NCBI GenBank assembly: GCA_037131105.1
Contig: JBAXRQ010000001.1
Span: forward strand, 560,589 to 624,588
Length of the DNA stretch: 64,000 nucleotides
DNA from: a bacterium
Lineage (GTDB): Bacteria; Patescibacteriota; UBA1384; CAILIB01
Direction of reading: 5' to 3'
Position numbers and translations under genes: made by a program. The notes below the pieces were generated by a model that was given only the letters and a program-made list of their open reading frames with translations, ran no database searches and had not been told where the DNA came from. This document shows, one piece after another, positions 3,874-37,481 of this stretch (the stretch's first letter is position 1; every line of letters starts with the position of its first letter).

Positions 3874-3902
3874 TTTATACCATACCTATTTCACTCTGTC
3901 AA
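3874..3902 (-). promoter_or_regulatory. Sigma70 promoter TTGACA-17-TATAAA for the 2822-3805 gene
   Basis: Minus-strand TTGACA (3897-3902) and TATAAA (3874-3879) with 17 nt spacing, about 60 nt upstream of the SD/ATG. Confidence 0.6.
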
Positions 3903-6748: not shown

Positions 6749-6753
6749 ACCCC

Positions 6754-17654: not shown

Positions 17655-20270
17655 TCAGACCTGGGGAGCAAGCTGAGGGGCAGGAGCTGGGGCCGGTTCA
17701 GGAGTGGCGGCGGGTACCGGTGCGAGTGGCGTTGAAGCCGTTGGAGCCACAGGAGCGACGGGTGCTGAAAGCCCCTTTGAGCGTAGGCGGATCTCGGACT
17801 CCACCAGCTCGCGGTCACGGCCGTACTTGAGGCGGGACAGCTGCTTGATCGCCTCCCCTACCTGGACGTTCTCGTTAGGGTCCGGCGGATAAGCAGCGGC
17901 ATTGAACGGCTTGGACGGACTTCCGTCGATAAGCATCTTGATGTAGTAGTTGTACTTTTCGGTATTGACCATGTCCTCTATCTCCAGTGGATCAAACTCC
18001 TTCTTAAAGAACTCAGCATCCGAGGCACCGATACGCCAGGTAAGCATAGTACCGACGTTACCGATGACGGCATTTCTCGTATCTTCATCAAGCTGTTCGA
18101 CAAACTGGTTGGTGATATTAAGCGACAGCTGGTACTTACGAGCTTCGGAGAGAATGGTGGCAAAAGTCTTGGACGTGAAGTTCTGGAACTCATCCACATA
18201 GAGATAAAATGGTACTCGTTCTGCCTCGGACTGGTTCTGACGTGAGAATGCGGCGATCTGGATCTTACCTGAGATGATCATACCGAGCAGCTGGGCGTTG
18301 ATATCTCCAAGCAGACCCTTCGGCAAGGTCACCAGGAGGATCTTCTTGCTGTCCATGGCCTCCCGAAAGTTGAAGGCGCTGTTCTGCTGGCCGATGATCG
18401 GCCGCATGATGTCATTGGTGGTGAACTGGGTGAGCTTGGAGGTGATGTACGGCACGATATTAGCAAGAGCCGCCTCTCCCCCAGCCTTTTCAGCCTCGTT
18501 CACCCAGAAGTCGATGACCACCTGGTTGCGGGTCTTGGAGAGTTTCAGCTTGCGGAACTCGGCGTCGGCCAGTACCTTTGGGATCTCCATAAGGGTGCTT
18601 CCCGAGTCAGGGTCGTCCATAACCAGCATCATGGCATTTCGCATGTACTGCTCAAACATAGGTCCTCCGGTGGCCTTCAGGTCATACAGCTTGTCGAAGA
18701 TGGAGATCATCTCGTTGATGACCATGGTCTTCTGCTCTGGATAGCGGGGGTCGAACTCAAGTAGGTTGAAGGCCATGGGGCGGGCGGTATCGGAAGGGTC
18801 AAACAGGATGACGTCCTCGGCCCGCTCCTTGGGAATGTGCTTGAGTATCCACTCGACGGCGTCACCGTTAGGATCCATGTAGCAGACCCCGTGCCCAGCC
18901 CGGATGTCCTGCAGTATCATGTTCTGGAACATAACCGTCTTACCTACACCAGTCTTTCCTATCATGTAGAAGTGGCGAGACCGGTCAGGATAGTTCATAT
19001 AGACCGGGATCTCAGTGCCACGGAAGGCGCTGTAGCCCAGCAATAGACCCGACTTCGGGATGTTGTTAGGAGGTGAAAGCCGGCGGGCACCCAGCCAGTG
19101 GATGTTTGGCGTGTCCAGTACCCGGTTTGGGAAATGGAAGATACTGGCCAGCTCCTCTGTGTTCAAGATAAAGCTAGGCTGGTCCTTGGAGAATAGACGC
19201 AGGATGTAGTCATTACGCAGATGCTGGCTACCGACTGCCGCGGTCTTAAACCCGTTCGACTCAGGCGCCTGATACTGAGAGAAAGCTGAGAGCATGGTCT
19301 GGACGTGGTTCTTAGCCTCAATCTCGGTAGCCGCCCAGGCCACGCAGCGGATCTGTACTTTGAAGCCTACCTTGCTGCCCTTCTCCACCATCAGCTTGGC
19401 TTGCTGCTCCTGCATGGCGGTAAGCCTGACATTAGCCTGGGTGGTGTTACCCGCCTCGTTATGAGTAGGTGCATCAGTCTTCTGGCTGGCCACTGCGGAC
19501 TGACCAACTTCCTTGGCAATATTTCCTACCTTCTGCATATTCGTGGTATGGAAGGATTTGCCCTGCTGCACGTTATGGAGCGCCTCCTCTATCTTATGCT
19601 GCCAGGACTGGTCGGTGGGCTGCACCAGGATCTGAATAGCGCCTCTCCCCTGCCCCATCTTGGATAGTGAGTTGGTCAAGCCATTCAGCGGATCATTCTC
19701 CAGGTTCTTATACGTTCTAATAGGAAATATTTGTTGCTTCATCAGCTGGATACCACCAGAGGCTGTAGCACCACCCTCCTTGATAAAGACGTCGTAATCC
19801 GTAGCCTCCTCGATCTGGGCAGCCGGGTATTGGCCATGGATCTGCCGCTCCACCTGATCCACCGTGTCAGAGGGACAGATAACATAAAAGAAAATCTCAC
19901 CATCATGGGCGGCTAGCTCAAAGGAAAAAGTCGGCTGGCCCTTCAGAAACGTATCAAACCAACTCGAGTCATAGAAATGATGCAGCGATGTGAATACCGC
20001 TTCCATGACGCCCATAATCTCCTTGGGATCACGCCGGTCGTCAGGATTGGCGAGCTGTTTAGGCATTGTCACCCGCAGAGCCCGTGTCTTCAAGGCGCGG
20101 TCTTGGTGCTGCTTGGTACGACGCATATAAATGTAGCGTGCCGCCACAGCCAAGCCGATAAGTAGAACAGCCAGTAGAAAGTCAGTCACTAAAAGTGCCG
20201 CCGTGTTGGTAGTACTGCTACCGCCGTCGGTGTAACTGGTGTCGTAGGTGTAGTCGGTGGTGTCTGCCAT
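17655..20270 (-). CDS. FtsK/HerA/VirD4-superfamily ATPase B (871 aa): N-terminal transmembrane helix, same novel domain, Walker A GKTGVGKT, DPNGD, Walker B YVDEFQNF, Pro/Ala-rich tail
   Basis: Clear paralog of ATPase A (shared blocks EELAS.FHFP, FATILSEARKY, AVIGNVGTM). Confidence 0.7.
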   Translation of the reverse strand: MADTTDYTYDTSYTDGGSSTTNTAALLVTDFLLAVLLIGLAVAARYIYMRRTKQHQDRALKTRALRVTMPKQLANPDDRRDPKEIMGVMEAVFTSLHHFYDSSWFDTFLKGQPTFSFELAAHDGEIFFYVICPSDTVDQVERQIHGQYPAAQIEEATDYDVFIKEGGATASGGIQLMKQQIFPIRTYKNLENDPLNGLTNSLSKMGQGRGAIQILVQPTDQSWQHKIEEALHNVQQGKSFHTTNMQKVGNIAKEVGQSAVASQKTDAPTHNEAGNTTQANVRLTAMQEQQAKLMVEKGSKVGFKVQIRCVAWAATEIEAKNHVQTMLSAFSQYQAPESNGFKTAAVGSQHLRNDYILRLFSKDQPSFILNTEELASIFHFPNRVLDTPNIHWLGARRLSPPNNIPKSGLLLGYSAFRGTEIPVYMNYPDRSRHFYMIGKTGVGKTVMFQNMILQDIRAGHGVCYMDPNGDAVEWILKHIPKERAEDVILFDPSDTARPMAFNLLEFDPRYPEQKTMVINEMISIFDKLYDLKATGGPMFEQYMRNAMMLVMDDPDSGSTLMEIPKVLADAEFRKLKLSKTRNQVVIDFWVNEAEKAGGEAALANIVPYITSKLTQFTTNDIMRPIIGQQNSAFNFREAMDSKKILLVTLPKGLLGDINAQLLGMIISGKIQIAAFSRQNQSEAERVPFYLYVDEFQNFTSKTFATILSEARKYQLSLNITNQFVEQLDEDTRNAVIGNVGTMLTWRIGASDAEFFKKEFDPLEIEDMVNTEKYNYYIKMLIDGSPSKPFNAAAYPPDPNENVQVGEAIKQLSRLKYGRDRELVESEIRLRSKGLSAPVAPVAPTASTPLAPVPAATPEPAPAPAPQLAPQV

Positions 20271-20721: not shown

Positions 20722-23700
20722 CTATGAAGACCCACCCGGGAGCAGTACATCCTGAAGAGCCTCGTTATTGAGAATATTGGCCATGGCGGCTCCGATCAGG
20801 AGAATGCGGTTTTCCAGTGGGCTTCCGTCTGGGAGTTTTTTGTATCTTTCTCTTGTCGGGGCACTGAGTTGCCTTAGGCGAGTCAGCGCCTCCTTACGGC
20901 CGTCTCCTTCGGTCAGGTTAAGAAGCTCCATGACGCTTTCCCTATCCGCAAAGAAGTCCTCTAGGGCGGCATCATCCGCTGGCATCCCGTCCCCACCATT
21001 AATAAGCTCTTCTAGGTTCTTCTTTATACGATCAGAAAATGCCGGATATTTCTTTTCAGCTTCTGGAGGTGCGGCGCTTCTCAGCCTCAGCTGCAGCCTC
21101 CGCAAGCTATCCATAATAGAAGATGGTCGACTTTCTTCAGTAGAAGGAGTCACAGTCACGGCTGGCGGTTCTTCAGCTGGCGCTGCTTCGACTGTACCCG
21201 GATCAGCAACAGGCGGAGCCTCCAAATCACCCTCGTCCGCTACTGCTTCGATAGGGGCGCCTACGGGCTCCGCAGCAGGAGCCTCAGTCCCTGCACCAGC
21301 ATCCGGATCACCGGGAGCAGCTGGCGGCTCAGTAGTAACGGTCTCTGTACGACCCGCTACGGGATCACTATTATTGGCCTCCTTCTGCATGAACTGACCC
21401 TGTCTCCTTATGGTAAGGTCAAAGGAACGGACCGGCATGCAGCCTTCGGTACCATATGACCGGTCGTTGGCTTCGTTAAAGAGATATCTGCTCCAGTTCT
21501 TCACGAGTGGTACGAAATGCAGGGAAAGGGCCGGACGCCATGGACCCCGGGTATCAGTCGTAGCCGGATCCATAAGGGCCTTATAGGACTGCCTCAGAGC
21601 CTCTTGCCTCTCTAGGCTCGACAGCACCTCGTCATCAACCGCCATGAAGAGCTTCACATTTCCATTGAAGCGATCGTTGAAATCCTCAGGTGCGTTCTCA
21701 CCGAAACGCTTGGCACTACCCTGGTAGTCCCAGATCGCTTCCATTTTACCCCTCACCATGGCAGGTGACTGCTCAGGAGTAAAGGCAAGAAGAAATCTCT
21801 GCTCGTCTTTCGGCCAATCACTCAGGGTTTCAGCTGCTAACCTGAACGCGTCCCTGTGCAGCGGATTCCTAAGCTCGTCCCTGAAGTTCTTGGCCCCCGG
21901 ACCCGCGGCAGACCTGAGGCCATTCTTGTATGCCTCCCAGGAACCAAGCTCGGAGATACTGCCCACCCCATCATCCCCGGCACCGCCATCCTCGATGATC
22001 AGCTCAGTTTTTGTTGAGCGTAGCTTATTTTGAATGTAATACTCTTCAAGCTCGCTGACCTCGTATTTTATGCCGCCGTACCCCACGCTCTCCTCATTCC
22101 CCGCAAAGGGACCTTCGATGTTCAATGGCCGAAGGATTGCGGTGTCGGGGTCAGTCTCATAGTCAGCGTTATTGGGTCCGGACACCAAGTACACGTAATC
22201 AAACATAACAAGGTTTCCCTGTGCCGGCGTATCCATCTGGAAGACCGTTCCAGGCTTCTTCATGAGCTCCTGAAATTCGACCCGACGAGTTTCGCGCTCT
22301 GCAGGTGACAGTCCTGGCTCTGGCCGAACAGGAGCCTCTCTGCCTGCCGGAGGTCGTTCGGTAGGAGGTACTGGTGGTGCAGGTGGCACCGGAGCCTGAG
22401 GTCCCTCAGGCCCTCCGGGACGCGGAGGAGTGGGCGGTACTGGTGGAGCAGGTGGCACAGAAGCCGGCGGTGTCGCCGTTGCTGCCTCGGGCGTAGCAGG
22501 AGGAGCAGGCACAACAGACCCTTCTGGCTGCACTTGGCTGGCATTTCCTACCCCGCCTAGTGAAGTCAGCTCCGACTTGCCGCGAGCAGCGTTCAGGCGG
22601 GTCCTATTGGCCTCACCCATGGTGGCAATACCCTCGGACATGGCAGCGCCCGCCCCGAAGAAAGCCGTAAGCGGAACCGTCTGGGCAAGACTGTCCTTCA
22701 GAAAGGCACCGAAGATCTGCAGGCCACCGACCTCTGAATTATGGAAAAGCTGCAGGCCACGGCCAGTAGTTGCGTCATACATCGCCCCTCCCAGCCGTCT
22801 AGCGGCGTCCACCGCGTCTGTAGTTGCACCATTTCCGGGATATATGGCATGCAAGGTGTTCGGCGACACGTTTATCATGTCCTTCCTCTCAAGGACGAAC
22901 CTGGCCACTTTGTCGTGGGCCCCCTGTATCATCTTGGTCAGATGTCCCCTGGTTGAGTCGTGAGCCACGCTCATGCCGTCCAGCCGCACACCGTCGGCAC
23001 CGTACAGTGAGTTCTGCAGCCCATGCCAGTGATTGATGATGTTGTAGAGGCCACCGGTCAGGCTTCCAGCTGCGCCGCCGATCATTCCCGCCTTATTGAT
23101 CTGCTTGTCAGCCTCTTTCCTGGCCTTCATGAACTCACCGAACTTGGCCAGCTTCTCGTCGGCAGGTGGCTCACCAATATTCTTCAGACGGCTGTCGGTC
23201 GAGTCACGCATGCTGCGGGCAACAAAGCGCAGTAGGTCGGCCTTCTGCTCCTGAGTAGCCTCAGGTGCCGCTTCAGGATTCTCAGTAGTATGAATATAGC
23301 GCTGGGCATACTCAGTTGCCTTGCCGACATTCTCAGTCAGCTCCTGGAAGGCCGACCCTCCCAGAGTAGTGCCGTCTTCTTGCTCCTGGTAGAGCTTCTT
23401 CTCCTTGAAGTGGCGCATGATGCTGCGCCCGGCCATGGCACCGGCAAAGCTCAAGGCCGCCAGAGGTACAGCGGTTCCCATGGAAATGGTAGCCAGTCCT
23501 AACGCTGAAAGCCCCATGCCCACGCCGAGGCCGCCGGCAGTGGTCTTGGCGGTCCGCACTCCATCCTTTATGACCCGCTTCACATAACTTGGCTGTTTGA
23601 GGTTGACGTTTATTTCGGACTGAGGATCAATACCTCCCTGCGAGGAGAAGCTTTCGATATCCACACCGAACTGGTCGCAGGCCTCCTGCAGATTTTTGAA

Positions 23701-24240
23701 GCCTAGGCGGTGCACATACATCTCGCCGGCGATAGAGTCCCAGCCGTACTGCACCAGATCCCTAGCAATGAACAGCAGATCCTCCTCGTCAAGCTCCTCT
23801 CGGCGCTTCAGCTTTTCCTTGAAGCGAGTAAGAATAAGTCGACGGACAAGCTGGCGATGGGCGTCGGCGTCCAGCATTTCAGGCTCAGCCGGTACCTCGA
23901 TCGCCGGGGCAGGAGCTTCTTCAGCCGGAGGAGTTTCAACCAGAGGGGCAATGGCAGGCTCGGCCACAGGGTCAGCGGCAGGGACCTCAGGTTCAGGATC
24001 GGAAGCAGGGACTGGTTCCGGAGCGATAGGCTGCTCTTCACCGTTCAAGTAGAGCTCCTTCAATCGGGCCAGGTCATAGCGCTTATACTCACGCTCACGC
24101 TGGGCCAGCAGCCGTTTCTGCTGCTTGGGCTTATGGACGTTCTCCTCCATAAACTCATTCTTGTACTCGTTAACCCTGTCGGCGAGAGTGCCGGCATTGG
24201 TACGTGCGTTCTGCCATCCTTCCCCCCATGCGACAGCCAT
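20722..24240 (-). CDS. Giant membrane protein (1172 aa) with Gly/Ala-rich transmembrane hairpins, Pro-rich linkers and a C-terminal globular region; possible VirB6/TrbL-like channel or scaffold
   Basis: Hydrophobic G/A-rich segments (GGLGVGMGLSALGLATISMGTAVPLAALSFAGAMAG; GMIGGAAGSLTGGLY; VPLTAFFGAGAAMSEG); start 2 nt from the stop of the upstream ORF. Confidence 0.6.
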   Translation of the reverse strand: MAVAWGEGWQNARTNAGTLADRVNEYKNEFMEENVHKPKQQKRLLAQREREYKRYDLARLKELYLNGEEQPIAPEPVPASDPEPEVPAADPVAEPAIAPLVETPPAEEAPAPAIEVPAEPEMLDADAHRQLVRRLILTRFKEKLKRREELDEEDLLFIARDLVQYGWDSIAGEMYVHRLGFKNLQEACDQFGVDIESFSSQGGIDPQSEINVNLKQPSYVKRVIKDGVRTAKTTAGGLGVGMGLSALGLATISMGTAVPLAALSFAGAMAGRSIMRHFKEKKLYQEQEDGTTLGGSAFQELTENVGKATEYAQRYIHTTENPEAAPEATQEQKADLLRFVARSMRDSTDSRLKNIGEPPADEKLAKFGEFMKARKEADKQINKAGMIGGAAGSLTGGLYNIINHWHGLQNSLYGADGVRLDGMSVAHDSTRGHLTKMIQGAHDKVARFVLERKDMINVSPNTLHAIYPGNGATTDAVDAARRLGGAMYDATTGRGLQLFHNSEVGGLQIFGAFLKDSLAQTVPLTAFFGAGAAMSEGIATMGEANRTRLNAARGKSELTSLGGVGNASQVQPEGSVVPAPPATPEAATATPPASVPPAPPVPPTPPRPGGPEGPQAPVPPAPPVPPTERPPAGREAPVRPEPGLSPAERETRRVEFQELMKKPGTVFQMDTPAQGNLVMFDYVYLVSGPNNADYETDPDTAILRPLNIEGPFAGNEESVGYGGIKYEVSELEEYYIQNKLRSTKTELIIEDGGAGDDGVGSISELGSWEAYKNGLRSAAGPGAKNFRDELRNPLHRDAFRLAAETLSDWPKDEQRFLLAFTPEQSPAMVRGKMEAIWDYQGSAKRFGENAPEDFNDRFNGNVKLFMAVDDEVLSSLERQEALRQSYKALMDPATTDTRGPWRPALSLHFVPLVKNWSRYLFNEANDRSYGTEGCMPVRSFDLTIRRQGQFMQKEANNSDPVAGRTETVTTEPPAAPGDPDAGAGTEAPAAEPVGAPIEAVADEGDLEAPPVADPGTVEAAPAEEPPAVTVTPSTEESRPSSIMDSLRRLQLRLRSAAPPEAEKKYPAFSDRIKKNLEELINGGDGMPADDAALEDFFADRESVMELLNLTEGDGRKEALTRLRQLSAPTRERYKKLPDGSPLENRILLIGAAMANILNNEALQDVLLPGGSS

Positions 24241-24710: not shown

Positions 24711-25766
24711 CTATGCTGTCGCTGGAGCTGCTGTGCCCGGAGGCGGCGTAGGAGCCGGCGTCGGGGCGGGAGTTGTGGTGGCCGGTGTGGCCGGGGTGCC
24801 AGTAGCTGGCGTCGCAGTCGCACCGGTTGTAGCCGGTGGTGCCGTGACGGTCGCTGTGGCCGGCTTCTTGAAAAGCCAGGCCAACGCAACCAGTATCAGG
24901 ATGCCGAGCCCTACCAGTCCCCAGTTTATCTGGATGACGCTGTTGACGCCGCTCCGGATGTCGCTGCCCTGGGCCTTGATCTCGGTTGCCTGCTTCTGGA
25001 TGTCGGTCGCCTGATCCCCGATAGTGGCCAGTGAGGTCAGGAAGTCTTTGTCGTCAACCTCCTGCTTGCTGGCTACTCCGTTGATCGTGGTGACAACCGT
25101 TGCCAGTGTGGCAGTGTTGGCGCTCGTTGAGGCCTGAACCGCCTTCACGCCAGTGGCAATCGCGTCGATCTTCTTACCCAGGCCGTCGAACTTGGCGTCG
25201 GTCCGCTTTTCGGAAGCGGCGACCAGGCCTTTTACGGCGACTAGTGTCACGCCAGACTTGCTCACCCTTCCACCAGTTGCCTTGCGGCTTGCGGCGTGGT
25301 GACGGACAGATCCACCGCTGCGGTGGCGGCGAACACCCCCACCGTGATGGCGGTGATGACGGACCGGAGCAGCAGGGGCAGCCGCGGGTGCGGCGGCCGA
25401 ATGCGTGTCCGGCACGACCTCGGGGGCCGGTTTGGTCTCCGGGTCAGGAGCGGGATCTGGCTCGGTGGCAATGCCACTGTCGCCGTCTTCCACGTCATTG
25501 CCTTCGTCCTCTCCAACCCCGTATTCGGGAGCAGGGGCGGCTTCGGGCAATCCTGCCTGCGGGGCAGGCGGGGCCAGTGCCAGCCGTTCTCCACTCTGGC
25601 CTTCAGGGGCCTTCGGGGCGGAAACGGTTGTTTCAAAGCCCGGGTTCGGCGCCGGGGCGCCTATGCTGGCCTGACTTCTTCCAGTCGAGCTGGTGGACGT
25701 CATATGGACCGCCACACCGAGTACCATGCCGATCGCCAATGCGACGATCACAATTCGATTTTTCAT
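24711..25766 (-). CDS. Membrane protein (351 aa): signal/transmembrane N-terminus, acidic Pro/Ala region, His/Arg-rich patch, coiled segment, C-terminal transmembrane helix and Pro/Thr-rich tail
   Basis: Start MKNRIVIVALAIGMVLG is preceded by AGGAGG; it is the first gene of the operon, behind a consensus promoter. Confidence 0.55.
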   Translation of the reverse strand: MKNRIVIVALAIGMVLGVAVHMTSTSSTGRSQASIGAPAPNPGFETTVSAPKAPEGQSGERLALAPPAPQAGLPEAAPAPEYGVGEDEGNDVEDGDSGIATEPDPAPDPETKPAPEVVPDTHSAAAPAAAPAAPVRHHRHHGGGVRRHRSGGSVRHHAASRKATGGRVSKSGVTLVAVKGLVAASEKRTDAKFDGLGKKIDAIATGVKAVQASTSANTATLATVVTTINGVASKQEVDDKDFLTSLATIGDQATDIQKQATEIKAQGSDIRSGVNSVIQINWGLVGLGILILVALAWLFKKPATATVTAPPATTGATATPATGTPATPATTTPAPTPAPTPPPGTAAPATA

Positions 25767-25821
25767 TTCTACCTCCTGTCGTGATTTGGCTCCCCCTTGT
25801 CGGGTAGCGGACAGTGGCCGC

Positions 25822-25850
25822 ATTAAACCACAAAAACAGCCTTTTGTCAA
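25822..25850 (-). promoter_or_regulatory. Sigma70 promoter TTGACA-17-TTTAAT driving the 24711-14145 operon
   Basis: Minus-strand TTGACA (25845-25850) and TTTAAT (25822-25827) with 17 nt spacing; about 55-nt 5'UTR with AGGAGG. Confidence 0.6.
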
Positions 25851-25876
25851 GGCCCTTAGGCTCTCACAGCCTATTA

Positions 25877-27079
25877 CTATAGACCGAAGGCAGCTCTTAG
25901 CAGTGAGGTCTTGCCACATCGTATGGCATTAGCAAGATGCGAGGTCACTAAGGAAAGCACCGCTACATTATGCAAGGTCAGGATCCGATAGCCCAGCATC
26001 TCGTGCTCCTTTATATAATGGTGCAGACTGGCCCGGGTGAATCCAACCAGATCCTTTGGCAGGGGTCCGAAGCCTACCAACGGGTTGGGATCAGCTGCAA
26101 ACCGGGCATTGTTCAGGTTCCAGCGCTCAAAGGCCAGATTGCCCTGTAGCAATGTGTCGGTATCCCCTTCCCAGAAGGCCCTTACCGTACCCTCGTCCCC
26201 TACCGGTATCCAGACCGCCCCGTGCCGGGCCAGGCGGCTGGGAGAGACGCAGTCATACATGTCTACACCTCTGAGAGTAGCCTCTACCAGATCGGTAGGC
26301 TCGCCCAGCCCCATGAAGTAGCGCGGCTTCTCGAGTGGCAACAGGGAGTTAATAGACTCGACAGCCTGCCACATCTCAGCCTTGCCTTCGCCCACGGAAA
26401 GGCCGCCGATGGCATTTCCAGGGAGATCAAGAGCAGCAACCGCCTCTGCCGACGTACGGTGCAGATCGGTATGGATGCCGCCCTGCACAATGCCAAAGAG
26501 AGCCTGCTTTCCAGGTTCGGACTTCTTCCACTCTTCAGCGCTTCGCTCAAGCCAGCGCATGCTCCGCTCCATCGCCTCCTTGGCCGCTAACGGGTCAGAG
26601 AGGCCATAGACCGGCTGGTCGAAGGCCATTATGATGTCGGCACCCAGGTTACGCTGGATGTCTATGCTCTTTTCAGGGGTAAACAGGTGCTTGGAGCCGT
26701 CCAGGTGTGAATGGAAGGTAATCCCCTCCTCTGCCACGCTTCTTAGAGCGGTCTTCTCGGTACCGGCCATCCCCCGCTCCCCGAGGGAAAACACCTGAAA
26801 ACCTCCACTATCGGTAAGAATAGGACCGTCCCACTGCATAAACTGATGCAGTCCGCCCACTTCCTTCACCAACCCATCGCCAGGCCTGAGGTACATATGG
26901 TAGGTATTGGCCAGGATAACCTGGGATCCAACCTGTGAAAGCTCGGCAGGAGATACGGACTTTACCGCCCCGTGCGTGCCCACTGGCATGAACACAGGAG
27001 TGTTGACCACCCCGTGCGGAGTAGTCAACTGACCTGTACGGGCCTCCCCATCGGTAGCGGTGACAGTGAATTCAAACAT
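25877..27079 (-). CDS. tgt: Queuine tRNA-ribosyltransferase (tRNA-guanine transglycosylase)
   Basis: Tgt signature (FMPVGTHGAVK, ILANTYHMYLRPG) and zinc site C..C..C..H near the C-terminus. Confidence 0.9.
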   Translation of the reverse strand: MFEFTVTATDGEARTGQLTTPHGVVNTPVFMPVGTHGAVKSVSPAELSQVGSQVILANTYHMYLRPGDGLVKEVGGLHQFMQWDGPILTDSGGFQVFSLGERGMAGTEKTALRSVAEEGITFHSHLDGSKHLFTPEKSIDIQRNLGADIIMAFDQPVYGLSDPLAAKEAMERSMRWLERSAEEWKKSEPGKQALFGIVQGGIHTDLHRTSAEAVAALDLPGNAIGGLSVGEGKAEMWQAVESINSLLPLEKPRYFMGLGEPTDLVEATLRGVDMYDCVSPSRLARHGAVWIPVGDEGTVRAFWEGDTDTLLQGNLAFERWNLNNARFAADPNPLVGFGPLPKDLVGFTRASLHHYIKEHEMLGYRILTLHNVAVLSLVTSHLANAIRCGKTSLLRAAFGL

Positions 27080-27136: not shown

Positions 27137-27523
27137 TTACTTCAATTCTACGGTAGCGCCAGCTCCCTCGAGCTTGGCCTTGGCGGCGTCAGCCTCGTCC
27201 TTCTTGACGTTGGCCAGAACCTCCTTAGGAGCACCGTCAACCAGGTCCTTGGCTTCCTTCAGGCCCAGGTCGGCGCGAACTTCGCGTACAGCCTTGATCA
27301 CGTTGATCTTCTGGTCACCAGCGGCAGCCAGGACAACGGTGAAGGAGGTCTTCTCCTCAGCGGCCTCAGCAGGAGCAGCAGCGCCGGCAGGAGCCATCAT
27401 CATAGGAGCGGCAGCGGAAACACCGAACTTCTCTTCAAGTTCCTTTACGAGCTCGGAAAGCTCAAGGACGGTCAGCTTCTCAATCTTCTCAATCAGGTCG
27501 GCAAAGTTTGACTTGTCAGCCAT
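27137..27523 (-). CDS. rplL: 50S ribosomal protein L7/L12
   Basis: Canonical L7/L12 sequence ([35 protein letters not shown]...). Confidence 0.92.
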
Positions 27524-27560: not shown

Positions 27561-28082
27561 TTAGGCGCGAGAATCCCTGATCTGTCCCATGACAGTAACA
27601 AGGCCGCGGATGTTACCCTGCAGAACGTTGACCATACCGGAAATAGGTGCGGCCAAAGTACCAACCAGCTGACCGAGGAGCTGCTCGCGGCTCGGAAGCT
27701 TCGACAACGCAATAACCTGGGCTTGGGACAGATATACTCCGTCCATAATACCGCCCACTACCTCAAGGTTCTCGACTTCCTTCAGGAAGGGAGCGACCAG
27801 CTTGGCGCCGGCTACGGCGTCGTCATAGGAGAACACCAGACCGAGGGGCTGTCCGAGGGCCTCTTCAGGAACCTCGATACCGGCATCGGCTAGGGCCTTC
27901 TTCAGAATGTTATTCTGAGCGATCTGAAGCTGCAGCCCGTCGCTAAAGAGCGAGTCGCGGATGCTTTCCAGATCCCCTACCTTCACACTCTGGACATTGA
28001 CCAGAACGACGGACTGAGAGCGGCTGAGCCGATCTGTGGTCCGAGCCAGAATCGCCTCTTTTTGGACGCGTGTCTTTGGCAT
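27561..28082 (-). CDS. rplJ: 50S ribosomal protein L10
   Basis: L10 family sequence, upstream of rplL. Confidence 0.9.
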   Translation of the reverse strand: MPKTRVQKEAILARTTDRLSRSQSVVLVNVQSVKVGDLESIRDSLFSDGLQLQIAQNNILKKALADAGIEVPEEALGQPLGLVFSYDDAVAGAKLVAPFLKEVENLEVVGGIMDGVYLSQAQVIALSKLPSREQLLGQLVGTLAAPISGMVNVLQGNIRGLVTVMGQIRDSRA

Positions 28083-28230
28083 AGGCGCTTGGGGTTATAC
28101 TTGTAAAATGTGATGGTAATAAAAAACTGGACCATCAGGTAGGTCCAGAGAACGTATATGCAAACCACAAAAAGCGGCTGACATACCTCGGCGGGACTTA
28201 TGGGTGCCTGCTGTCTCTGGTACGTCCTTA

Positions 28231-28259
28231 GTTATACCTGATACCTTAGCTCCTGTCAA
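28231..28259 (-). promoter_or_regulatory. Sigma70 promoter TTGACA-17-TATAAC for rplJ-rplL, followed by a ~150-nt leader (candidate L10 leader)
   Basis: Consensus hexamers with 17 nt spacing on the minus strand, 150 nt upstream of the rplJ ATG. Confidence 0.6.
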
Positions 28260-28324
28260 CAAACCTGACATGCGAAAGGGGGCCGGTTTCCCAGCCCCCT
28301 ACGGAGGTGCCCCTCAAGCACGCT

Positions 28325-29458
28325 CTAACCACTCTTCTTCCGATACGTAGCTAGACGTACCAGCCAGTAACCCACAAACAACACCAAAGCCGCTGCCAAC
28401 AGTGCCAGCAGAACCGGCCAGCTCAGGCCGACAAGCACTGCCAGGGCGGCCCACCATCTCCTTCGGTTCGGAGTCGCACTCCCCTCAACTGCAACTGCCG
28501 TCATCCCAATGAACAGAATAACCGACAGGCCAAGGAGGTAGTTTGACAAAATGTTCAGCCAAACCCGGATCACCACGTTCGGTACGTTGGTCAGGGTCAC
28601 CGATGGCTGGCCCGTATAACCGACATCGCTCCATTCGCGGGACCTTCCCTGTGAGACCATGCCGATCTTCTTCCAAACCAGATCGTTGGTCTGCTGCCAG
28701 GTCCAGTACGAGACCGCGTTATACCCGCGCGTGCGCTTGCCGAACTCCAGCACTTCGCTGGCCTCAGACAAACCATACGTCTGACCAAGGGGCACTATCG
28801 GCTTCTTGATGCCGTTCTCATGCTCCCAGGCCTTCCACTCTCGGTAGGTCCAGTTGACGGTCTCTTTGACGGACCTCCCCATCGTCCTCCAATACATCTG
28901 GGGCTCAATGAAGTCAGTACCGCCTACCAGGACCTGGTAGGGAAGCGCTCGATGCTTGGAAGGAATGGCATAGGGTGCGAATCCGAGCAGCTTCTGGGGA
29001 CACTTAGTCGTCCTGTAGTCAGAAACTTCACTGACAAGCTGCTCAGTCTCCCCCCACTTTGGTTTGGACTCCATCGGCGTCTCCGTGTTGTACACGTAGC
29101 CATCGACATAGTCGCGGGACAGCCAGTCGCAGATCAGGTGGGCCTCCTCATGCGGATGGTTTGCATGGTTGAAGCCCCAGACGAAAACCTTTATCCCTGC
29201 GGACTGCATGGCCCTGGCAATCTCGGGCACCCGGTCAGCCTCCACGTAAAGCTGGATGCCGTCGTGCACCTTCAGGTAGACATGACCGATGCCGGCCGCC
29301 TTGGCCTGGTTGACCATCTCTGCGGGCGTACCGCACTTGCTGGGCTGCCCGATCCAGATACCGACCCCGATCTGCCTGAGCTGGTCGGATACCGGCGCTG
29401 CCTGGACCATCGAAGTCCAAGCACATACAAACAGTGCTACTATCAAAGAACGTTTCAC
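28325..29458 (-). CDS. Secreted/membrane-anchored putative glycoside hydrolase (TIM-barrel, GH25-lysozyme-like pattern) with a C-terminal transmembrane anchor; start moved to the GTG giving signal peptide MKRSLIVALFVCAWTSMVQAAP
   Basis: SD GAGGGAGCAAGA-GTG and its own consensus promoter; GH25-like spacing of GI..G / AKAAGI..YLKVHDG / AGIKVFVWGFNH blocks; C-terminal hydrophobic stretch plus RKKSG. Confidence 0.5.
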   Translation of the reverse strand: MKRSLIVALFVCAWTSMVQAAPVSDQLRQIGVGIWIGQPSKCGTPAEMVNQAKAAGIGHVYLKVHDGIQLYVEADRVPEIARAMQSAGIKVFVWGFNHANHPHEEAHLICDWLSRDYVDGYVYNTETPMESKPKWGETEQLVSEVSDYRTTKCPQKLLGFAPYAIPSKHRALPYQVLVGGTDFIEPQMYWRTMGRSVKETVNWTYREWKAWEHENGIKKPIVPLGQTYGLSEASEVLEFGKRTRGYNAVSYWTWQQTNDLVWKKIGMVSQGRSREWSDVGYTGQPSVTLTNVPNVVIRVWLNILSNYLLGLSVILFIGMTAVAVEGSATPNRRRWWAALAVLVGLSWPVLLALLAAALVLFVGYWLVRLATYRKKSG

Positions 29459-29489
29459 TCTTGCTCCCTCTAAAATGAAGTGACGCCTT

Positions 29490-29518
29490 ACTATAGGCAG
29501 TTTATCGTCTTCTGTCAA
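29490..29518 (-). promoter_or_regulatory. Sigma70 promoter TTGACA-17-TATAGT for the glycoside-hydrolase-like gene
   Basis: Consensus -35 and near-consensus -10 with 17 nt spacing, immediately downstream of the rplA terminator. Confidence 0.65.
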
Positions 29519-29520
29519 TA

Positions 29521-29550
29521 AAAAAGAGCCCCTTAAGGGGCTCTTTTTTA
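29521..29550 (-). terminator. Intrinsic terminator after rplA (agagcccc-ttaa-ggggctct, flanked by A6/T6; bidirectional)
   Basis: Perfect 8-bp GC-rich stem plus a U-run on the minus strand, 15 nt after the rplA stop. Confidence 0.7.
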
Positions 29551-29564
29551 TTGCTTCGGCTACG

Positions 29565-30494
29565 TTACTTAACCGCGATCTCCACCTTCACACCGGGACC
29601 CATGGTAGGGGCAAGGCTGATGGACTCGATTTTGTTTGAGGCAAGAAGCTGTTCCAAGATACGGAAGTTCTCTACCAGCTGTTCGCTCTTGAAGGAAACA
29701 CGGCCGATAGCCAGGTGCACTACGCCGCTCTTGTCAGCCCGGTATTCGATACGGCCGCCACCGATCTCAGTGCGTGCTTTCTCGATATCCTCGGTGACGG
29801 TACCAGCCTTAGGAGACGGCATCAGACCCTTAGGACCCAGCACCTTGGCGTACTTGGCAAGCTTTGGCATCTGGGCAGGAGTAGCCAGCAGGATGTCGAA
29901 GTCAAGCTTACCAGCGGCGATAGCCTCTAAGGTCTCGTCGTCAGCAACGGCTACTTTCTTAGTTTTACCAGTGCCGTGGGGCAGGGTAACCATGCCGCGC
30001 AGACCTTCAGTCTTCACCTTGGCGTGCAGCTCAACAGTGGCGTCAAAGCTGACGTAGGACAGCTGCTTGACCAGCTCAACGGCTTCCTCGATAGGGTAGG
30101 CCTTACTGCGGTCTACCAGAGCGATCTTGGCCCGGTACTTCTTGCCACGCAGACGGAGGGGGTCCAATACTTTGGTAGGGGCCGGTGCAGGAGCGGCTCC
30201 CTTGGCCTCACGGGCGGCGGCAGCCTTCTTGGACTTCTCAGAGGTGCTCTCACGGCCCTTCTTGGCCTCTACGGCCTCCTCGTCAACGATCGCAGCCTCC
30301 TTCTCAAGCTGTGAATAGTCGATCTCGGTCGCCGCATCTGCCTCACGAGCAGTGTCATTGTCGGTGTTCATGGCGGACTCCTCAGCGGGGGTGACTTCGG
30401 CGCTGCCGGTCACCTGCTCGAGCTCTTCCAGTACCATGTCGTTCTCGTCCTGGTTCTGATCCATAGGATCATGCTTGATGGCGTCATCAGCCAT
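29565..30494 (-). CDS. rplA: 50S ribosomal protein L1 with a ~85-aa acidic low-complexity N-terminal extension
   Basis: Residues ~95-309 are a canonical L1 core; N-terminal D/E/A-rich region with no alternative start nearer the core. Confidence 0.85.
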   Translation of the reverse strand: MADDAIKHDPMDQNQDENDMVLEELEQVTGSAEVTPAEESAMNTDNDTAREADAATEIDYSQLEKEAAIVDEEAVEAKKGRESTSEKSKKAAAAREAKGAAPAPAPTKVLDPLRLRGKKYRAKIALVDRSKAYPIEEAVELVKQLSYVSFDATVELHAKVKTEGLRGMVTLPHGTGKTKKVAVADDETLEAIAAGKLDFDILLATPAQMPKLAKYAKVLGPKGLMPSPKAGTVTEDIEKARTEIGGGRIEYRADKSGVVHLAIGRVSFKSEQLVENFRILEQLLASNKIESISLAPTMGPGVKVEIAVK

Positions 30495-30645: not shown

Positions 30646-31224
30646 TTACGGATGGATGGTCTCCTCCGCAAGAGTGCCTTGCTCGAGCCACTCTACCAGT
30701 TTTGGGACTACTCTGTCAATCGCCTGCTCCACCATCTTGCGCTCATGGGCAGGGAGCGGCTGCAGTACGTACTCGTCGAGCGGCGGCTGGTGCACGCGGT
30801 GCTCAGGATGTTGCTCGTACAGTCCTACTCCAATCTTGACCCGCCAGAACTCATCGGAGCCGGAATGATCCAGGAGCGACTTCAGTCCGTTGTGTCCCCC
30901 ATCCCCGCCTGACTTGCGCACCCGTACCGACCCTGGAGCGATGTATACATCATCAGCAATGACGCAGATGTCCTCAGGAGCCACCCCGAAATACTCTACG
31001 ACTTCGCGTACCGGCCGGCCAGAGGTGTTCATGAACTGAGTTGGCTTAAAAAGCAAAGACTTGGTAGTTCCGCTGCCAATTTCCCAGAGCTCGCCGTCCT
31101 TAAACTGCTTAGCCTTCCCCGCCCCTAGCTTTTTAGCTACAGCATCAAGACAGACGAAACCTATAGTATGACGATCGCGCACGTGCTGTTCCCCGGGATT
31201 TCCCAAACCGATGAGTAGACGCAT
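30646..31224 (-). CDS. pth: Peptidyl-tRNA hydrolase
   Basis: MRLLIGLGNPG...H motif typical of Pth. Confidence 0.9.
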   Translation of the reverse strand: MRLLIGLGNPGEQHVRDRHTIGFVCLDAVAKKLGAGKAKQFKDGELWEIGSGTTKSLLFKPTQFMNTSGRPVREVVEYFGVAPEDICVIADDVYIAPGSVRVRKSGGDGGHNGLKSLLDHSGSDEFWRVKIGVGLYEQHPEHRVHQPPLDEYVLQPLPAHERKMVEQAIDRVVPKLVEWLEQGTLAEETIHP

Positions 31225-31274: not shown

Positions 31275-31592
31275 CTACAAACCCAGACCGGCAGGTAAAT
31301 TAAGATCACCAGCAACTTTCTTCATCTGTTCAGCCGCAACCGCCTGGGCTTTGGAAATAGCCTGGCCGGTCACGTTCATGATCGACTTCTCGAGCTCGCG
31401 GCCCTTGCCTGGCTCCAGCCAGGAGTCGTCGATCTGGATGTCTACCATGCGCTGTTCGCCGTTGAACACCACGGTAATGGTGCCGTCAGCTGACGACGCC
31501 TCGATCTCGGTCTCCTTCAGCTCCTTCTGGATGGCCCGGGCCTTCTTTACCAGCTCATAGGTCTCTTTGCCCTTGGAAAATGGATTACTCAT
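31275..31592 (-). CDS. ybaB: Nucleoid-associated protein YbaB/EbfC
   Basis: 105 aa, YbaB family pattern. Confidence 0.85.
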   Translation of the reverse strand: MSNPFSKGKETYELVKKARAIQKELKETEIEASSADGTITVVFNGEQRMVDIQIDDSWLEPGKGRELEKSIMNVTGQAISKAQAVAAEQMKKVAGDLNLPAGLGL

Positions 31593-31606: not shown

Positions 31607-32731
31607 TTAGGCGGATATATTCGAATCTGACTTTAGGTAGGCCTCGATGAAGCCACTCAGCTCGCCGTCCAGTACTCCCTGCACGTCGCTGGTCTCATAC
31701 TCGGTACGGTGGTCCTTGACCAACTGGTAGGGCTGCATGACGTAGGAACGGATCTGGTTACCCCAGCTGCCTTCCTTGAACTCACCCTTGAGGATAGCAG
31801 TTTCCTCGGCGTCCTGCAGTAAGCGAAGTCGCTCTAGCTTGGAGAGCAGGATCTTCATAGCGGTAGCCTTGTTCTGGTGCTGGCTGCGCTCATTCTGGAC
31901 ACTTACCACCAGGCCGCTGGGAAGGTGGGTCAGGCGTACGGCCGAGTCGGTGGTATTTACCCCCTGTCCTCCTTTGCCGCTCGAGCGAAAGACATCGATG
32001 CGCAGGTCCTTCTCGTCAATGTTTGCAGCCGCGGAGGCGTCCATCTCGGGAATGACCTCGACTAGGGCAAAGCTGGTCTGACGCAAACCCTTAGCATTAA
32101 AAGGCGACATACGCACCAGACGGTGTACTCCGGCCTCGGACTTCAGTAGGCCGAAGGCATTGCTGCCCTGGATCTCAAGTACCGCCCGCTTGAGGCCCGC
32201 CTCCTCTCCCCTAGTCCGCTCGACGATGTCTACCTTCCAATTGTGCCGATCAACTGAGAGTGTACGCTCCTCTGGCTGCTCGGTGCTCCCCTGCTCCACA
32301 TACCGCAAGAACATGCGCTCCAACATCTCGGCGAAATCCTGGGCATCTACGCCTCCGGTGCCGGCGTGAATGGTCAGGATGGCCCCTCTAGCGTCATGAA
32401 CACCTGAAAGCAAGGCCTTCTGCTCAAGCACTGTAAGCTCTTTATCTAGACTAATGAGATCATCCTCAGATAATTCAACCATGCCAAGAAATCCTTCCAG
32501 ATCGTCCCACTGGGAAAGAGTTGCCTGCAGCTCATTAAGCTCGGACATGGTCTTCACTGCCTTCTCCTGGTCCTCCCAGAGGTCGCTGGCCTGGCTAGCC
32601 GCCTCGAGTTCAGGTAAGCGTATTCGCTTTGCCTCAATGCCAAGCTTAGGCCCCAGGGCCTGCAGGCGTTCACCCAGGTTGTCTAGTTCTGTGGCCATTG
32701 ATGAGATTAGTGTCTCCAGAGATACTACCAA
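31607..32731 (-). CDS. prfB: Peptide chain release factor 2 (SPF and GGQ motifs), encoded without the programmed +1 frameshift
   Basis: SPF tripeptide (RMSPFNAKG) and GGQ (SGKGGQGVNTTDSAVR); single uninterrupted ORF. Confidence 0.85.
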   Translation of the reverse strand: MVVSLETLISSMATELDNLGERLQALGPKLGIEAKRIRLPELEAASQASDLWEDQEKAVKTMSELNELQATLSQWDDLEGFLGMVELSEDDLISLDKELTVLEQKALLSGVHDARGAILTIHAGTGGVDAQDFAEMLERMFLRYVEQGSTEQPEERTLSVDRHNWKVDIVERTRGEEAGLKRAVLEIQGSNAFGLLKSEAGVHRLVRMSPFNAKGLRQTSFALVEVIPEMDASAAANIDEKDLRIDVFRSSGKGGQGVNTTDSAVRLTHLPSGLVVSVQNERSQHQNKATAMKILLSKLERLRLLQDAEETAILKGEFKEGSWGNQIRSYVMQPYQLVKDHRTEYETSDVQGVLDGELSGFIEAYLKSDSNISA

Positions 32732-32786: not shown

Positions 32787-34673
32787 TTACCGGATGTCCA
32801 GGTTCTCCAGGCTCTTCTTCAGGGCCTTCTTCAGCTTCAGGTAGCGAGCAAGTCCTGCACCTAGTCCAGAAGTGGTTCCTGCTAGTAGCAGGCCAGCTTC
32901 AGGGCCGGTCTTAGGCAACTGAGGCGGAACCGTGACAACTACGGGAGACGGACTTGGGGTCGGGCTATGCGTAGGAGTCGGGGTAGCGGTAGGAACTGGG
33001 GTCGGAGTAGGAGTCGGACTTGGGGTAGGCGTAGGTGTTGGCGTAGGCTTCGGGGTAGCTGTTGGCGTGGGGGTAGGGGTAGCCGTAGGCTTGGGAGTAG
33101 GAGTCGGGGTGGGCTTTGGCGTAGGTGTAGGCGTGGCCGTAGGGGTAGGCTTCGGAGTCGGGGTTGGGGTCGGCTTCGGGGTAGGAGTCGGAGTAGCCGT
33201 AGGTGTTGGGGCAGGCGTAGGAGTAGGAATGACACAGGCAGGCAGGATAGCCGTAGCAGTGTCGCTCTTCTCTCCGGTTCCGTTGGCCTTGATGAAGGCG
33301 GTGTTCACCGCAGTGGTCTGAGCCACGAGACAACGAACCTGAACCTTCAGGGTAATCGTCTTACCATGACCGGGGTCAAAGGTGGTCAGGATAATACCTC
33401 CCTTGAAGAAGGCGTCCTGTACCGGCTGAGACTGAACCGCGTTGTCGATGGTCAGACTGTTAGGCACATAGGTGGCACCGGTAGGCAGCACGTCACGCAG
33501 GGTAGGATTCACAGCGGTAGTGTTGCCAGTGTTACCGACCAAGATACGGTAGGTCAGGGTCTGGTTAGGGTTAATCAGTCCGATAGAGTCTACGTAGGCA
33601 CCGGTAGCGGGGTTCTGAACGTCCTTTACGACGGTCAGACCGCGGGTGCAGGAAATCAAGGTGGTAGCATCGTCAGAGGCCTTTACAGCGCCCTGGTATA
33701 CGATCTGAGCCTTGTCGACAACGGTTACGTCGGCACCACAGTTCGAAGGCGCAATGGCCTCAAACTGGATACGCTGGTATCCGCCGGTATGAGGCTCCAG
33801 GCTGGAGAACACATAGCCGCCGTTCACGATGGCATTACCCGAGATAGGGGTACCGTTCGTGTTGTTCTGGTTGGTCAAGAGAGCGTTGCCAGCATAGGTG
33901 AACCCAGCAGGCAGCACGTTCTTCAACGAGACATTGTTGGCAGTAGTATTACCGGTGTTCAGGATGGTCATACGATAGGCCACCTTGTCACCAGGAGCGA
34001 TGATAGCAGTAGCGGCATCGTACCAGATATCATAGCCGAGACTCATGTCACGGACCTCATTCTTCACGCTGAATGAGGTTACCGGAGTACCGTACCGGGT
34101 AACGGTATAGGATACCGGATTGGTGACAGCGCTTACCCCGTCAAACGAAGAGGTAGCGGTATTGGTATAGGTAGTCTGGCCAACCGAGAACTGGTCGTCA
34201 GAAGCAAGGCGAGCCTTGAACTGAAGATACAGGGCAGCGTTTGGCTGAGGAGCCATGTCAACGAAGGCCCAGCCAAGGTCATGACCGTTGTTCTTAATGC
34301 TCATGTAGCTATCCGAAAGCGGATAGTCATGGTCCTTGTTATCGCTGCCCTTTACCCGTACGAACGAGCTGTTAGGGGTATAGGTCAGACGAGAGTCAAG
34401 GTGCTCTACGATCTTCGGGTGGGCGCCGTTAGCGTCACCGGTGTTCTCAAGGAGTACGCGGAACGCCAGCGAGTCACCAGGAGTAGCCTGGGCACTGGAA
34501 GCATACTCGGACTGCCCGCCGGACAGCTGTACGGCAAGCCTGGTGTTGATCTGGGGACCAGAGGTCGCAATGACCGACTGCATACCCATGAAGCCAAGGG
34601 CCAGGGCGGAAGCAGCCACCACAAAGCGGGTGCCGAATCGTCCCATGGATGTAAGGAGTGAACTTTGTGTCAT
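32787..34673 (-). CDS. Cell-wall-anchored surface protein: signal peptide, DUF11-type repeat domains, Pro/Thr-rich stalk, LPKTG sortase motif plus hydrophobic segment plus basic tail
   Basis: C-terminal [31 protein letters not shown] is a canonical LPXTG sorting signal; ~100-aa (PTPT/PKPT)n linker. Confidence 0.7.
32932..33235 (-). repeat. Degenerate tandem DNA repeats (GGNGTNGGN-type units) encoding the Pro/Thr-rich stalk of the LPXTG protein
   Basis: Visible periodic gtaggngtnggngt units on the plus strand; explains the Gly/Val shadow ORFs on the opposite strand. Confidence 0.6.
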
Positions 34674-37156: not shown

Positions 37157-37185
37157 TTTATAGCCTAATTCTCTTATTTTGTCAA
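37157..37185 (-). promoter_or_regulatory. Sigma70 promoter TTGACA-17-TATAAA for the secreted-protein operon (37042-34894)
   Basis: Consensus hexamers with 17 nt spacing on the minus strand, ~110 nt upstream of the ATG. Confidence 0.6.
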
Positions 37186-37452: not shown

Positions 37453-37481
37453 ACTATACAACACGATTATTGGCTTGTCAA
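37453..37481 (-). promoter_or_regulatory. Sigma70 promoter TTGACA-17-TATAGT inside the 3' region downstream of the epimerase gene
   Basis: Perfect -35, near-perfect -10, 17 nt spacing. Confidence 0.55.

Follow-up and report, generated by a model that had tools for sequence, protein, structure and literature searches.

What kind of protein is encoded in the gap between two ribosomal protein genes, and does it have anything to do with them? In the 64,000-nucleotide stretch of Patescibacteriota contig JBAXRQ010000001.1 analysed here (the window), the spacer between rplA and rplJ (28083-29564, 1482 bp) holds one real gene, which we call X and whose product is identical to the NCBI hypothetical protein WCO52_03195, encoded on a 949,156-bp contig. 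The reading we favour, with a probability of about 60%, is that X is a membrane-tethered, exported enzyme from a TIM-barrel family without a name, a glycosidase whose most likely target is the glycan strands of peptidoglycan. The locus presents an unnamed glycosidase family in an unusual membrane-anchored form at a variable operon boundary, and we regard it as a modest find, not a surprising one. The parts of the gene and of its product are as follows.

28325-29458, minus strand: gene X, 377 amino acids, GTG start (from the translation of its open reading frame (ORF), the database entry and the structure model)
29399-29458, minus strand: predicted signal peptide, residues 1-20, MKRSLIVALFVCAWTSMVQA, cut before AP; the hydropathy peak spans residues 4-24
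28640-29386, minus strand: modelled (beta/alpha)8 barrel, residues ~25-273
29081-29089, minus strand: [D/N]-x-E motif, Asn124-Thr125-Glu126 (AAC ACG GAG), at the C-terminal end of strand 4
28496-28570, minus strand: predicted transmembrane helix, residues ~297-321 (hydropathy and model)
28343-28456, minus strand: C-terminal hydrophobic segment, residues 335-372, which contains the conserved Trp347-Pro348 and has a basic tail after it (hydropathy)

Family, fold and active site

Searches of X against Pfam, NCBIfam and PHROGs gave no usable model match, and phmmer against the PDB returned nothing. Matches to GDPD (E 0.0096) and GHL6 (E 0.069) lie far under the cut-offs and were set aside as chance or generic barrel similarity. 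A word-indexed search found 13 relatives, of which the closest two (47% and 38% identity) have the same full architecture; the others are proteins of ~400-600 amino acids, mostly labelled Solirubrobacterales, with a C-terminal PG_binding_1 domain. An exhaustive search of 1.84 billion cluster representatives recovered 954 at E <=1e-3, 295 at <=1e-10 and 18 at <=1e-30. Judged by these sequence matches, the family of X is unnamed and comprises at least 954 clusters at 50% identity. Its own subfamily is rare, with four members in a search of 5.8 billion sequences.

Conservation within the family, and the domains that accompany the barrel, were counted in 105 representatives. Glu126 is kept in every one of them, and position 124 is Asp in 81, Asn in 24 and nothing else, the two alternating even among the closest relatives of X. 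Trp94, Pro186 and Tyr189 are likewise invariant, and Lys63, Asp66, Glu105, His169, Gln187 and Gln226 are nearly so. According to the model and the alignment, the C-terminal strand ends, the site of TIM-barrel active sites, hold all of these residues, and W252 as well.

The first-pass annotation of this DNA, made without database searches, had described a TIM-barrel enzyme resembling GH25 (glycoside hydrolase family 25) lysozymes. The barrel is borne out by a confident AlphaFold2 model built on a 56-sequence alignment (mean predicted local distance difference test score (pLDDT) 82.7, with most of residues 50-250 above 90), in which eight strand-helix units are followed by a disordered linker and a pair of long C-terminal helices. 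A glycoside-hydrolase fold also emerges, as all top fold matches are glycoside hydrolases. The closest are GH18 chitinases, at 10-16% identity to the solved structures, and the Clostridioides difficile autolysin Cwp19. Foldseek against the PDB found generic glycoside-hydrolase barrels only (E ~1e-6), and the solved GH164, GH191, GH5 and GH153 chains match at the level of a generic barrel. GH113 and DUF4015, two further assignments that had been suggested, were not matched. GHL10 (PF02638) gave zero matches for X or for the 105 representatives, the related result being only the chance-level GHL6 match at E 0.069.

Whether X is a true GH25 muramidase, that is, a Chalaropsis-type lysozyme, deserves a careful answer, as several comparisons point toward that family. 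Fifteen of the 105 representatives match Glyco_hydro_25 at E up to 0.01, all below threshold, the best at 2.6e-6. The family profile matches the GH25 prophage lysin 3hmc in the PDB at E 1.4e-4, with the D-V-E of the lysin in line with [D/N]-x-E, and 4kru at E 0.034. When hhalign compared the family with a GH25 alignment of seven phage endolysins, collected from annotated records near Cpl-1, the match reached 86.3% probability (E 4.8e-6) with D-x-E in register; D92-Y-E94 of Cpl-1 falls opposite [D/N]124-x-E126, which in X itself reads N-T-E. Among the viral models searched with Foldseek, GH25 phage lysozymes match part of the X model at E ~1e-3.

The remaining evidence runs the other way. X does not match Pfam PF01183 (Glyco_hydro_25) at E up to 1, the threshold being 27 bits, and ten homologues inspected singly reach at most 23.5 bits against that cut-off, over model positions 13-115 of 180. 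The strand-1 Asp of GH25 (Asp10 of Cpl-1, in the DVS motif) is unmatched: the hhalign match begins after the DVS motif, which the GH25 alignment does show, and no acid is conserved in strand 1 of the family, which reads G-x-G-x-W-[IV]. Solved GH25 structures have an irregular (beta/alpha)5(beta)3 barrel, and the modelled barrel of X is unlike it. With scores under the Pfam threshold, the strand-1 Asp lacking and a full eight-helix barrel, the GH25 label is not supported, and we think it improbable that X is a member.

The X model does have the (beta/alpha)8 barrel of GH18, and a second alternative is that X is a GH18-like chitinase or endo-N-acetylglucosaminidase acting on chitin, chito-oligosaccharides, poly-N-acetylglucosamine or a secondary wall polymer. 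GH18 chains in the PDB match the family profile at E 0.035-0.58, the best with DG..D.E and PQ.Y aligned, and the [D/N]-x-E of the family aligns with the end of the GH18 signature DxxDxDxE. Within that signature the first Asp is present in 75 of the 105 representatives, the third position is Asp in 81 and Asn in 24, and the Glu is present in all, but the middle Asp is replaced by Val or Ile in 97. PF00704 (Glyco_hydro_18) gives no match for X and is absent from the 25 most frequent Pfam families listed for the representatives, and the low identity to GH18 structures tells against membership too. We rate this alternative as unlikely, if a little less so than the GH25 one. As X lacks both the strand-1 Asp and the middle Asp and fails both thresholds, we place it in neither GH25 nor GH18 but as a distant relative of GH25; on sequence and model together, its family is a complete GH18/Cwp19-like barrel distantly related to GH25.

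The domains fused to the barrel in other members bear on the substrate. They are PG_binding_1 in 23 representatives, PG_binding_3 in seven, SH3_3 in four, and M23 and CHAP in one each: peptidoglycan-binding or -cleaving partners, not chitin-binding ones, which tells against a GH18-like role. The link to peptidoglycan made in the first-pass annotation finds support in these fusions, and it is on them that peptidoglycan rests as the most likely substrate.

Membrane anchoring and proposed action

Hydropathy agrees with the earlier description of an N-terminal segment resembling a signal peptide and of membrane segments at the C-terminus. Read from its sequence, the signal peptide has an n/h/c layout of MKR, hydrophobic core and VQA, and would be cut after V-Q-A. 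Between the barrel and the transmembrane helix, residues 275-293 form a disordered linker with pLDDT below 50. C-terminal hydrophobic segments occur in 25 of the 105 representatives, 17 of which have a W-P near the end, as X does. The W-P segment of X (residues 335-372) matches no family model. What follows W-P in divergent members could not cross a membrane, being too short or too amphipathic for it; with this, and with a basic loop and a basic tail on its two sides, the segment probably lies at the cytoplasmic face, where it might bind a partner. A sortase-like sorting signal at this C-terminus was considered and is unlikely: a transmembrane helix and a basic loop already precede the segment, and the divergent members have too few residues after W-P to span a membrane.

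We propose that the barrel would sit outside the cytoplasmic membrane on a linker of ~25 residues, with X held by one transmembrane helix and by the C-terminal W-P segment, probably at the cytoplasmic face. The general acid would be Glu126, at the end of strand 4, and Asn124 (Asp in most relatives) would orient the 2-acetamido group of N-acetylmuramic acid or N-acetylglucosamine. Such an orienting role, instead of that of a nucleophile, is suggested by how freely Asp and Asn interchange at position 124. The equivalent position is Asn in GH85 and Asp in GH18 and GH20 enzymes. The chemistry would be substrate-assisted, as in GH18, GH25 and GH85, or a lytic-transglycosylase reaction; hydrolysis and lytic transglycosylation are indistinguishable from sequence. 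As X is tethered, it would act on the wall of its own cell, in growth, in cell separation or in making room for envelope machines. The first-pass annotation had left both host and own peptidoglycan as targets, and predicted tethering to its own membrane argues against action on that of a host.

The Asn at position 124 could also be taken to mean that X is an inactive, lectin-like or decaying passenger gene. Its absence from the nearest relatives (described below) and the extreme rarity of its subfamily, the four members noted above, would fit this. However, the gene has an unbroken reading frame, a consensus promoter and a ribosome-binding site, all residues invariant in the family are kept, and Asn is natural at this position, being found in 24 of the 105 representatives and alternating with Asp in close relatives. 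A passenger gene of this kind seems to us very improbable.

Several points weigh against a membrane-tethered peptidoglycan glycosidase that arrived by itself at this boundary. No family model names the family of X; the hhalign match to GH25 spans only ~114 columns (strands 2-5); and the top fold matches of the model are chitinases, not lysozymes. Changing Asp to Asn beside the catalytic Glu lowers activity in GH18 enzymes, and X has Asn. Membrane topology is ambiguous, as the C-terminal tail is basic and so is the loop that follows the first helix. Peptidoglycan synthesis by the organism lies beyond what the 64-kb window shows, and the promoters and terminators of the locus are predicted only. 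Composition gives no sign of recent transfer, the GC content of X (0.576) and that at third codon positions (GC3, 0.725) being inside the range of the window, and no inverted or direct repeats were found at the insertion borders. The codon distance of X is at the high end of the window range, yet inside it. As far as such tests on the sequence can tell, repeats, GC, GC3 and codon usage neither support nor exclude an origin from a mobile element.

If the assignment is right, X points to a family of wall-cutting enzymes that is so far uncharacterised, occurs mainly in Actinobacteria of the Solirubrobacterales type with a rare branch in bacteria of reduced genome, and is a candidate new family for CAZy. 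The wall-remodelling enzymes of Patescibacteria are poorly known, and X offers a concrete autolysin candidate among them. That the W-P tail is conserved hints that the cell may control an external hydrolase from its cytoplasmic side. More tentatively, and with some doubt on our part, the family may be a widespread one standing between GH25 and GH18, with a Patescibacteria-type branch that exchanged the wall-binding domain for a transmembrane helix and a conserved W-P element at the cytoplasmic face, by which the cell could steer or place its external enzyme from within, and that travels between small genomes as a single-gene cassette into operon boundaries such as rplA|rplJ.

The boundary between rplA and rplJ

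The minus-strand gene order around X is prfB, ybaB-like, pth, rplA, X, rplJ, rplL and tgt.

31607-32731, minus strand: prfB
31275-31592, minus strand: ybaB-like gene
30646-31224, minus strand: pth
29565-30494, minus strand: rplA (L1, 309 amino acids; Pfam Ribosomal_L1 2.5e-32; 62-70% identity to L1 of Patescibacteria)
27561-28082, minus strand: rplJ (L10; Pfam Ribosomal_L10 2.2e-17)
27137-27523, minus strand: rplL (L7/L12; Pfam Ribosomal_L12 2.8e-26, Ribosomal_L12_N 2e-20)
25877-27079, minus strand: tgt

The signals predicted in and around the spacer are these.

29516-29553, minus strand: rplA intrinsic terminator, a perfect 19+19 nt palindrome, 100% complementary
29490-29518, minus strand: X promoter, TTGACA-17-TATAGT, 11 of 12 consensus positions
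29464-29470, minus strand: X ribosome-binding site GAGGGAG, 5 nt 5' of the GTG, read from the sequence
28278-28299, minus strand: GC-rich hairpin 3' of X; a 69-nt stretch folds at -33.7 kcal/mol, z = -2.5
28231-28259, minus strand: rplJL promoter, TTGACA-17-TATAAC, one mismatch to consensus
28111-28238, minus strand: candidate L10 leader, Rfam RF00557, 34.9 bits, E 0.0016
28127-28148, minus strand: attenuator hairpin and U-run within the L10 leader, from the terminator scan

Four elements had been claimed at this junction, an rplA terminator, a promoter, the gene and a promoter for rplJ, and all are present where they had been placed. The terminator RNA has a folding energy of -26.5 kcal/mol (z = -6.4 against shuffles), and U6 comes after it; being symmetric, it could be bidirectional. 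The X promoter abuts its palindrome and stands as described, but the gene does not begin there. The mechanically derived ORF opens at a TTG (29518) that lies within the promoter, and the real start is the GTG at 29458, as it is preceded by GAGGGAG and the MK or MR starts of the homologues align there. Between the rplA and rplJL units, X has the design of a stand-alone transcription unit: terminator, promoter, ribosome-binding site, gene and hairpin. Only UUUC comes after the hairpin, which was not called by the terminator scan, so it is probably a weak terminator through which read-through is possible.

Near-consensus promoters are rare enough for the two at this locus to carry weight. A scan of the whole window for TTGACA-N17-TATAAT with at most one mismatch found six, those of X and rplJ included, against 0.13 expected, and none of 100 shuffles gave six. 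The other four lie at 3874-3902, 25822-25850, 37157-37185 and 37453-37481; all six are on the minus strand. The RF00557 match covers the full-length model at the expected position, yet falls under the gathering score (34.9 against 44 bits), and a scan of the whole window with Rfam at gathering thresholds gave zero matches. Matches to small-RNA families in a permissive Rfam scan were rejected as chance driven by terminators.

An extra, independently wired gene does lie between rplA and rplJ, and the spacer is abnormally long: 1482 bp, against a median of ~250 bp (range 41-974) in 42 other genomes in which both genes could be placed. Related loci were fetched through L1, one genome per species. 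The four closest (L003-L006, 62-70% L1 identity) are labelled Patescibacteria, Saccharibacteria or Berkelbacteria. The order prfB-ybaB-pth-rplA is common to the window, L003, L005 and L006, and L003 and L005 go on through rplA-rplJ-rplL; the contig of L006 stops before rplJ, and in L004 rplA is at the contig end. A tblastn search found neither X nor a remnant of it in L003-L006. What follows rplA in three of them, in the coordinates of each locus, is as follows.

L003, 1808-2281: spacer of 473 bp, geneless, with two hairpins
L005, 5690-6667: spacer of 974 bp, with ~730 bp between two terminators and ORFs of 152 and 113 amino acids without a Pfam match
L006, 5789-6439: ORF of 216 amino acids without a Pfam match, after rplA

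The rplA genes of this group share a side feature. An acidic, low-complexity N-terminal extension of L1, ~100 amino acids long in the window and ~70-100 across close relatives, is encoded at L003 924-1808, L005 4758-5690 and L006 4839-5687, and the Pfam match of the window gene product is confined to its C-terminal part.

Both the rplJ promoter and the leader of the window can be aligned with their counterparts in L005 and L003, neither of which has X; the promoter is conserved with L005 in place and in sequence. The RF00557 element scores 41.6 bits in L003 and 31.7 bits in L005 (gathering score 44). The promoter had been called fresh; kept in relatives without X, it is better seen as ancestral. 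The junction had also been described as interrupted, and of this the extra gene stands and a functional interruption does not: rplA and rplJ meet at a normal operon boundary, and X lies between the terminator of the one and the promoter of the other, so no ribosomal signal is disrupted. From the loci compared, the boundary varies within the clade and is a tolerated landing site for cargo. The value here is one of annotation; as the ribosomal operons retain the signals they had, no new regulatory principle follows.

Nor is X a conserved neighbour of rplA. Besides its absence from L003, L005 and L006, six homologues of the membrane-anchored branch sit elsewhere, in six unrelated contexts, none beside ribosomal genes: beside a methyltransferase; beside both TerC and PrsW; beside a formyltransferase; beside a DUF4337 gene; near dnaK/dnaJ; and, on a short contig (L083), with two unannotated ORFs. 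The implied link of X to the ribosome genes was therefore not upheld, and its position beside them is probably incidental. One homologue (L090, 3770-5155) forms a single-gene island of 0.61 GC in a contig of 0.42 GC, good evidence that a single gene was recently transferred in this branch. The same contig has a second single-ORF island of ~0.60 GC (6732-7379, 215 amino acids). Actinobacterial homologues are solitary genes among housekeeping genes, and a conserved functional neighbourhood was looked for around them and none was seen. We suggest that X would have arrived as a single-gene insertion at an operon boundary that is variable within the clade.

Phage relatives were sought by a pattern scan of IMG/VR and by tblastn against 50,697 phage genomes, and neither found any for X; with P0013 as query, the phage genomes gave matches to peptidoglycan-binding domains only. 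Foldseek against the BFVD viral models did find a family member of 255 amino acids in an uncultured tailed phage (E 1.5e-16, template-modelling score 0.82).

Neighbouring genes raise one more alternative, in which X opens the wall for a nearby type IV secretion system (T4SS) or pilus, in the role of VirB1, or acts as an effector on a host bacterium, opening its wall where the two cells touch. Two genes resembling type IV coupling proteins (14145-17072 and 17655-20270, with TrwB and TraG/VirD4 matches) lie ~8 kb downstream of X. A survey of Patescibacteria T4SS notes the frequent lack of VirB1 homologues and the possibility that other glycosidases substitute, and reports that Ca. Southlakia epibionticum cannot grow epibiotically without a lysozyme homologue beside virB4 (PMC12102498). 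However, rplJ, rplL, tgt and three unrelated ORFs intervene in the window, X has its own promoter and flanking terminators, and none of the six homologue contexts contains T4SS genes. Tethering on a ~25-residue linker limits the reach of the enzyme, and an epibiotic lifestyle of this organism is an assumption. Given the unrelated genes and the separate transcription signals between them, we consider a link of X to these secretion genes doubtful and rate it low.

Other genes of the region are recorded here for completeness. On the 3' side of tgt lie a protein of 1172 amino acids (20722-24240) and a proline-rich membrane protein of 402 amino acids (24711-25919), both without a family match. As given by the mechanical ORF list, the latter begins 43 nt inside the 3' end of tgt (25877-25919); its true start may be further downstream. 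On the other side, a DUF11-repeat surface protein of 628 amino acids (32787-34673) has a long Pro/Thr repeat linker and ends in LPKTG, a hydrophobic helix and a basic tail; this sortase signal suggests a wall-bearing, single-membrane envelope.

Comparison with known systems

The boundary itself resembles the canonical one between rplKA and rplJL in E. coli and Bacillus, which has an rplA terminator, an rplJL promoter of its own and an L10-binding leader with an attenuator; the first two are predicted in the window too, and the third has its counterpart in the candidate leader. The window differs by the 1.1-kb unrelated gene with its own promoter in the spacer and by what lies upstream of rplA, which in this clade is pth, not rplK. 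The usual secE-nusG-rplK is replaced by prfB, the ybaB-like gene and pth, an arrangement conserved in the clade.

Among enzymes of similar fold, Cwp19 of C. difficile, a GHL10 protein, is a peptidoglycan hydrolase or lytic transglycosylase held at the cell surface by wall-binding repeats (PMC5765458, PMC6016235), with Asp196 and Arg132 as proposed catalytic residues (PMC5765458). Its fold is among the closest to that of X, but its CWB2 repeats are answered in X by a membrane anchor, its proposed catalytic residues are different and X has no GHL10 sequence match. GH18 chitinases and endo-beta-N-acetylglucosaminidases, the spore-cortex enzyme SleL included, have the middle Asp that X is without, and the partner domains of the X family point instead to peptidoglycan. 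The GH25 muramidases (Cpl-1, the PlyB/LambdaBa04 lysin and the Cellosyl type) are like the X family in the D-x-E of strand 4 ([D/N]-x-E in the family), in wall context and in frequent fusion to wall-binding domains. Their C-terminal half is unaligned with the X family, and whereas the GH25 lysins are soluble, X has no strand-1 acid and carries a full eight-helix barrel anchored in the membrane.

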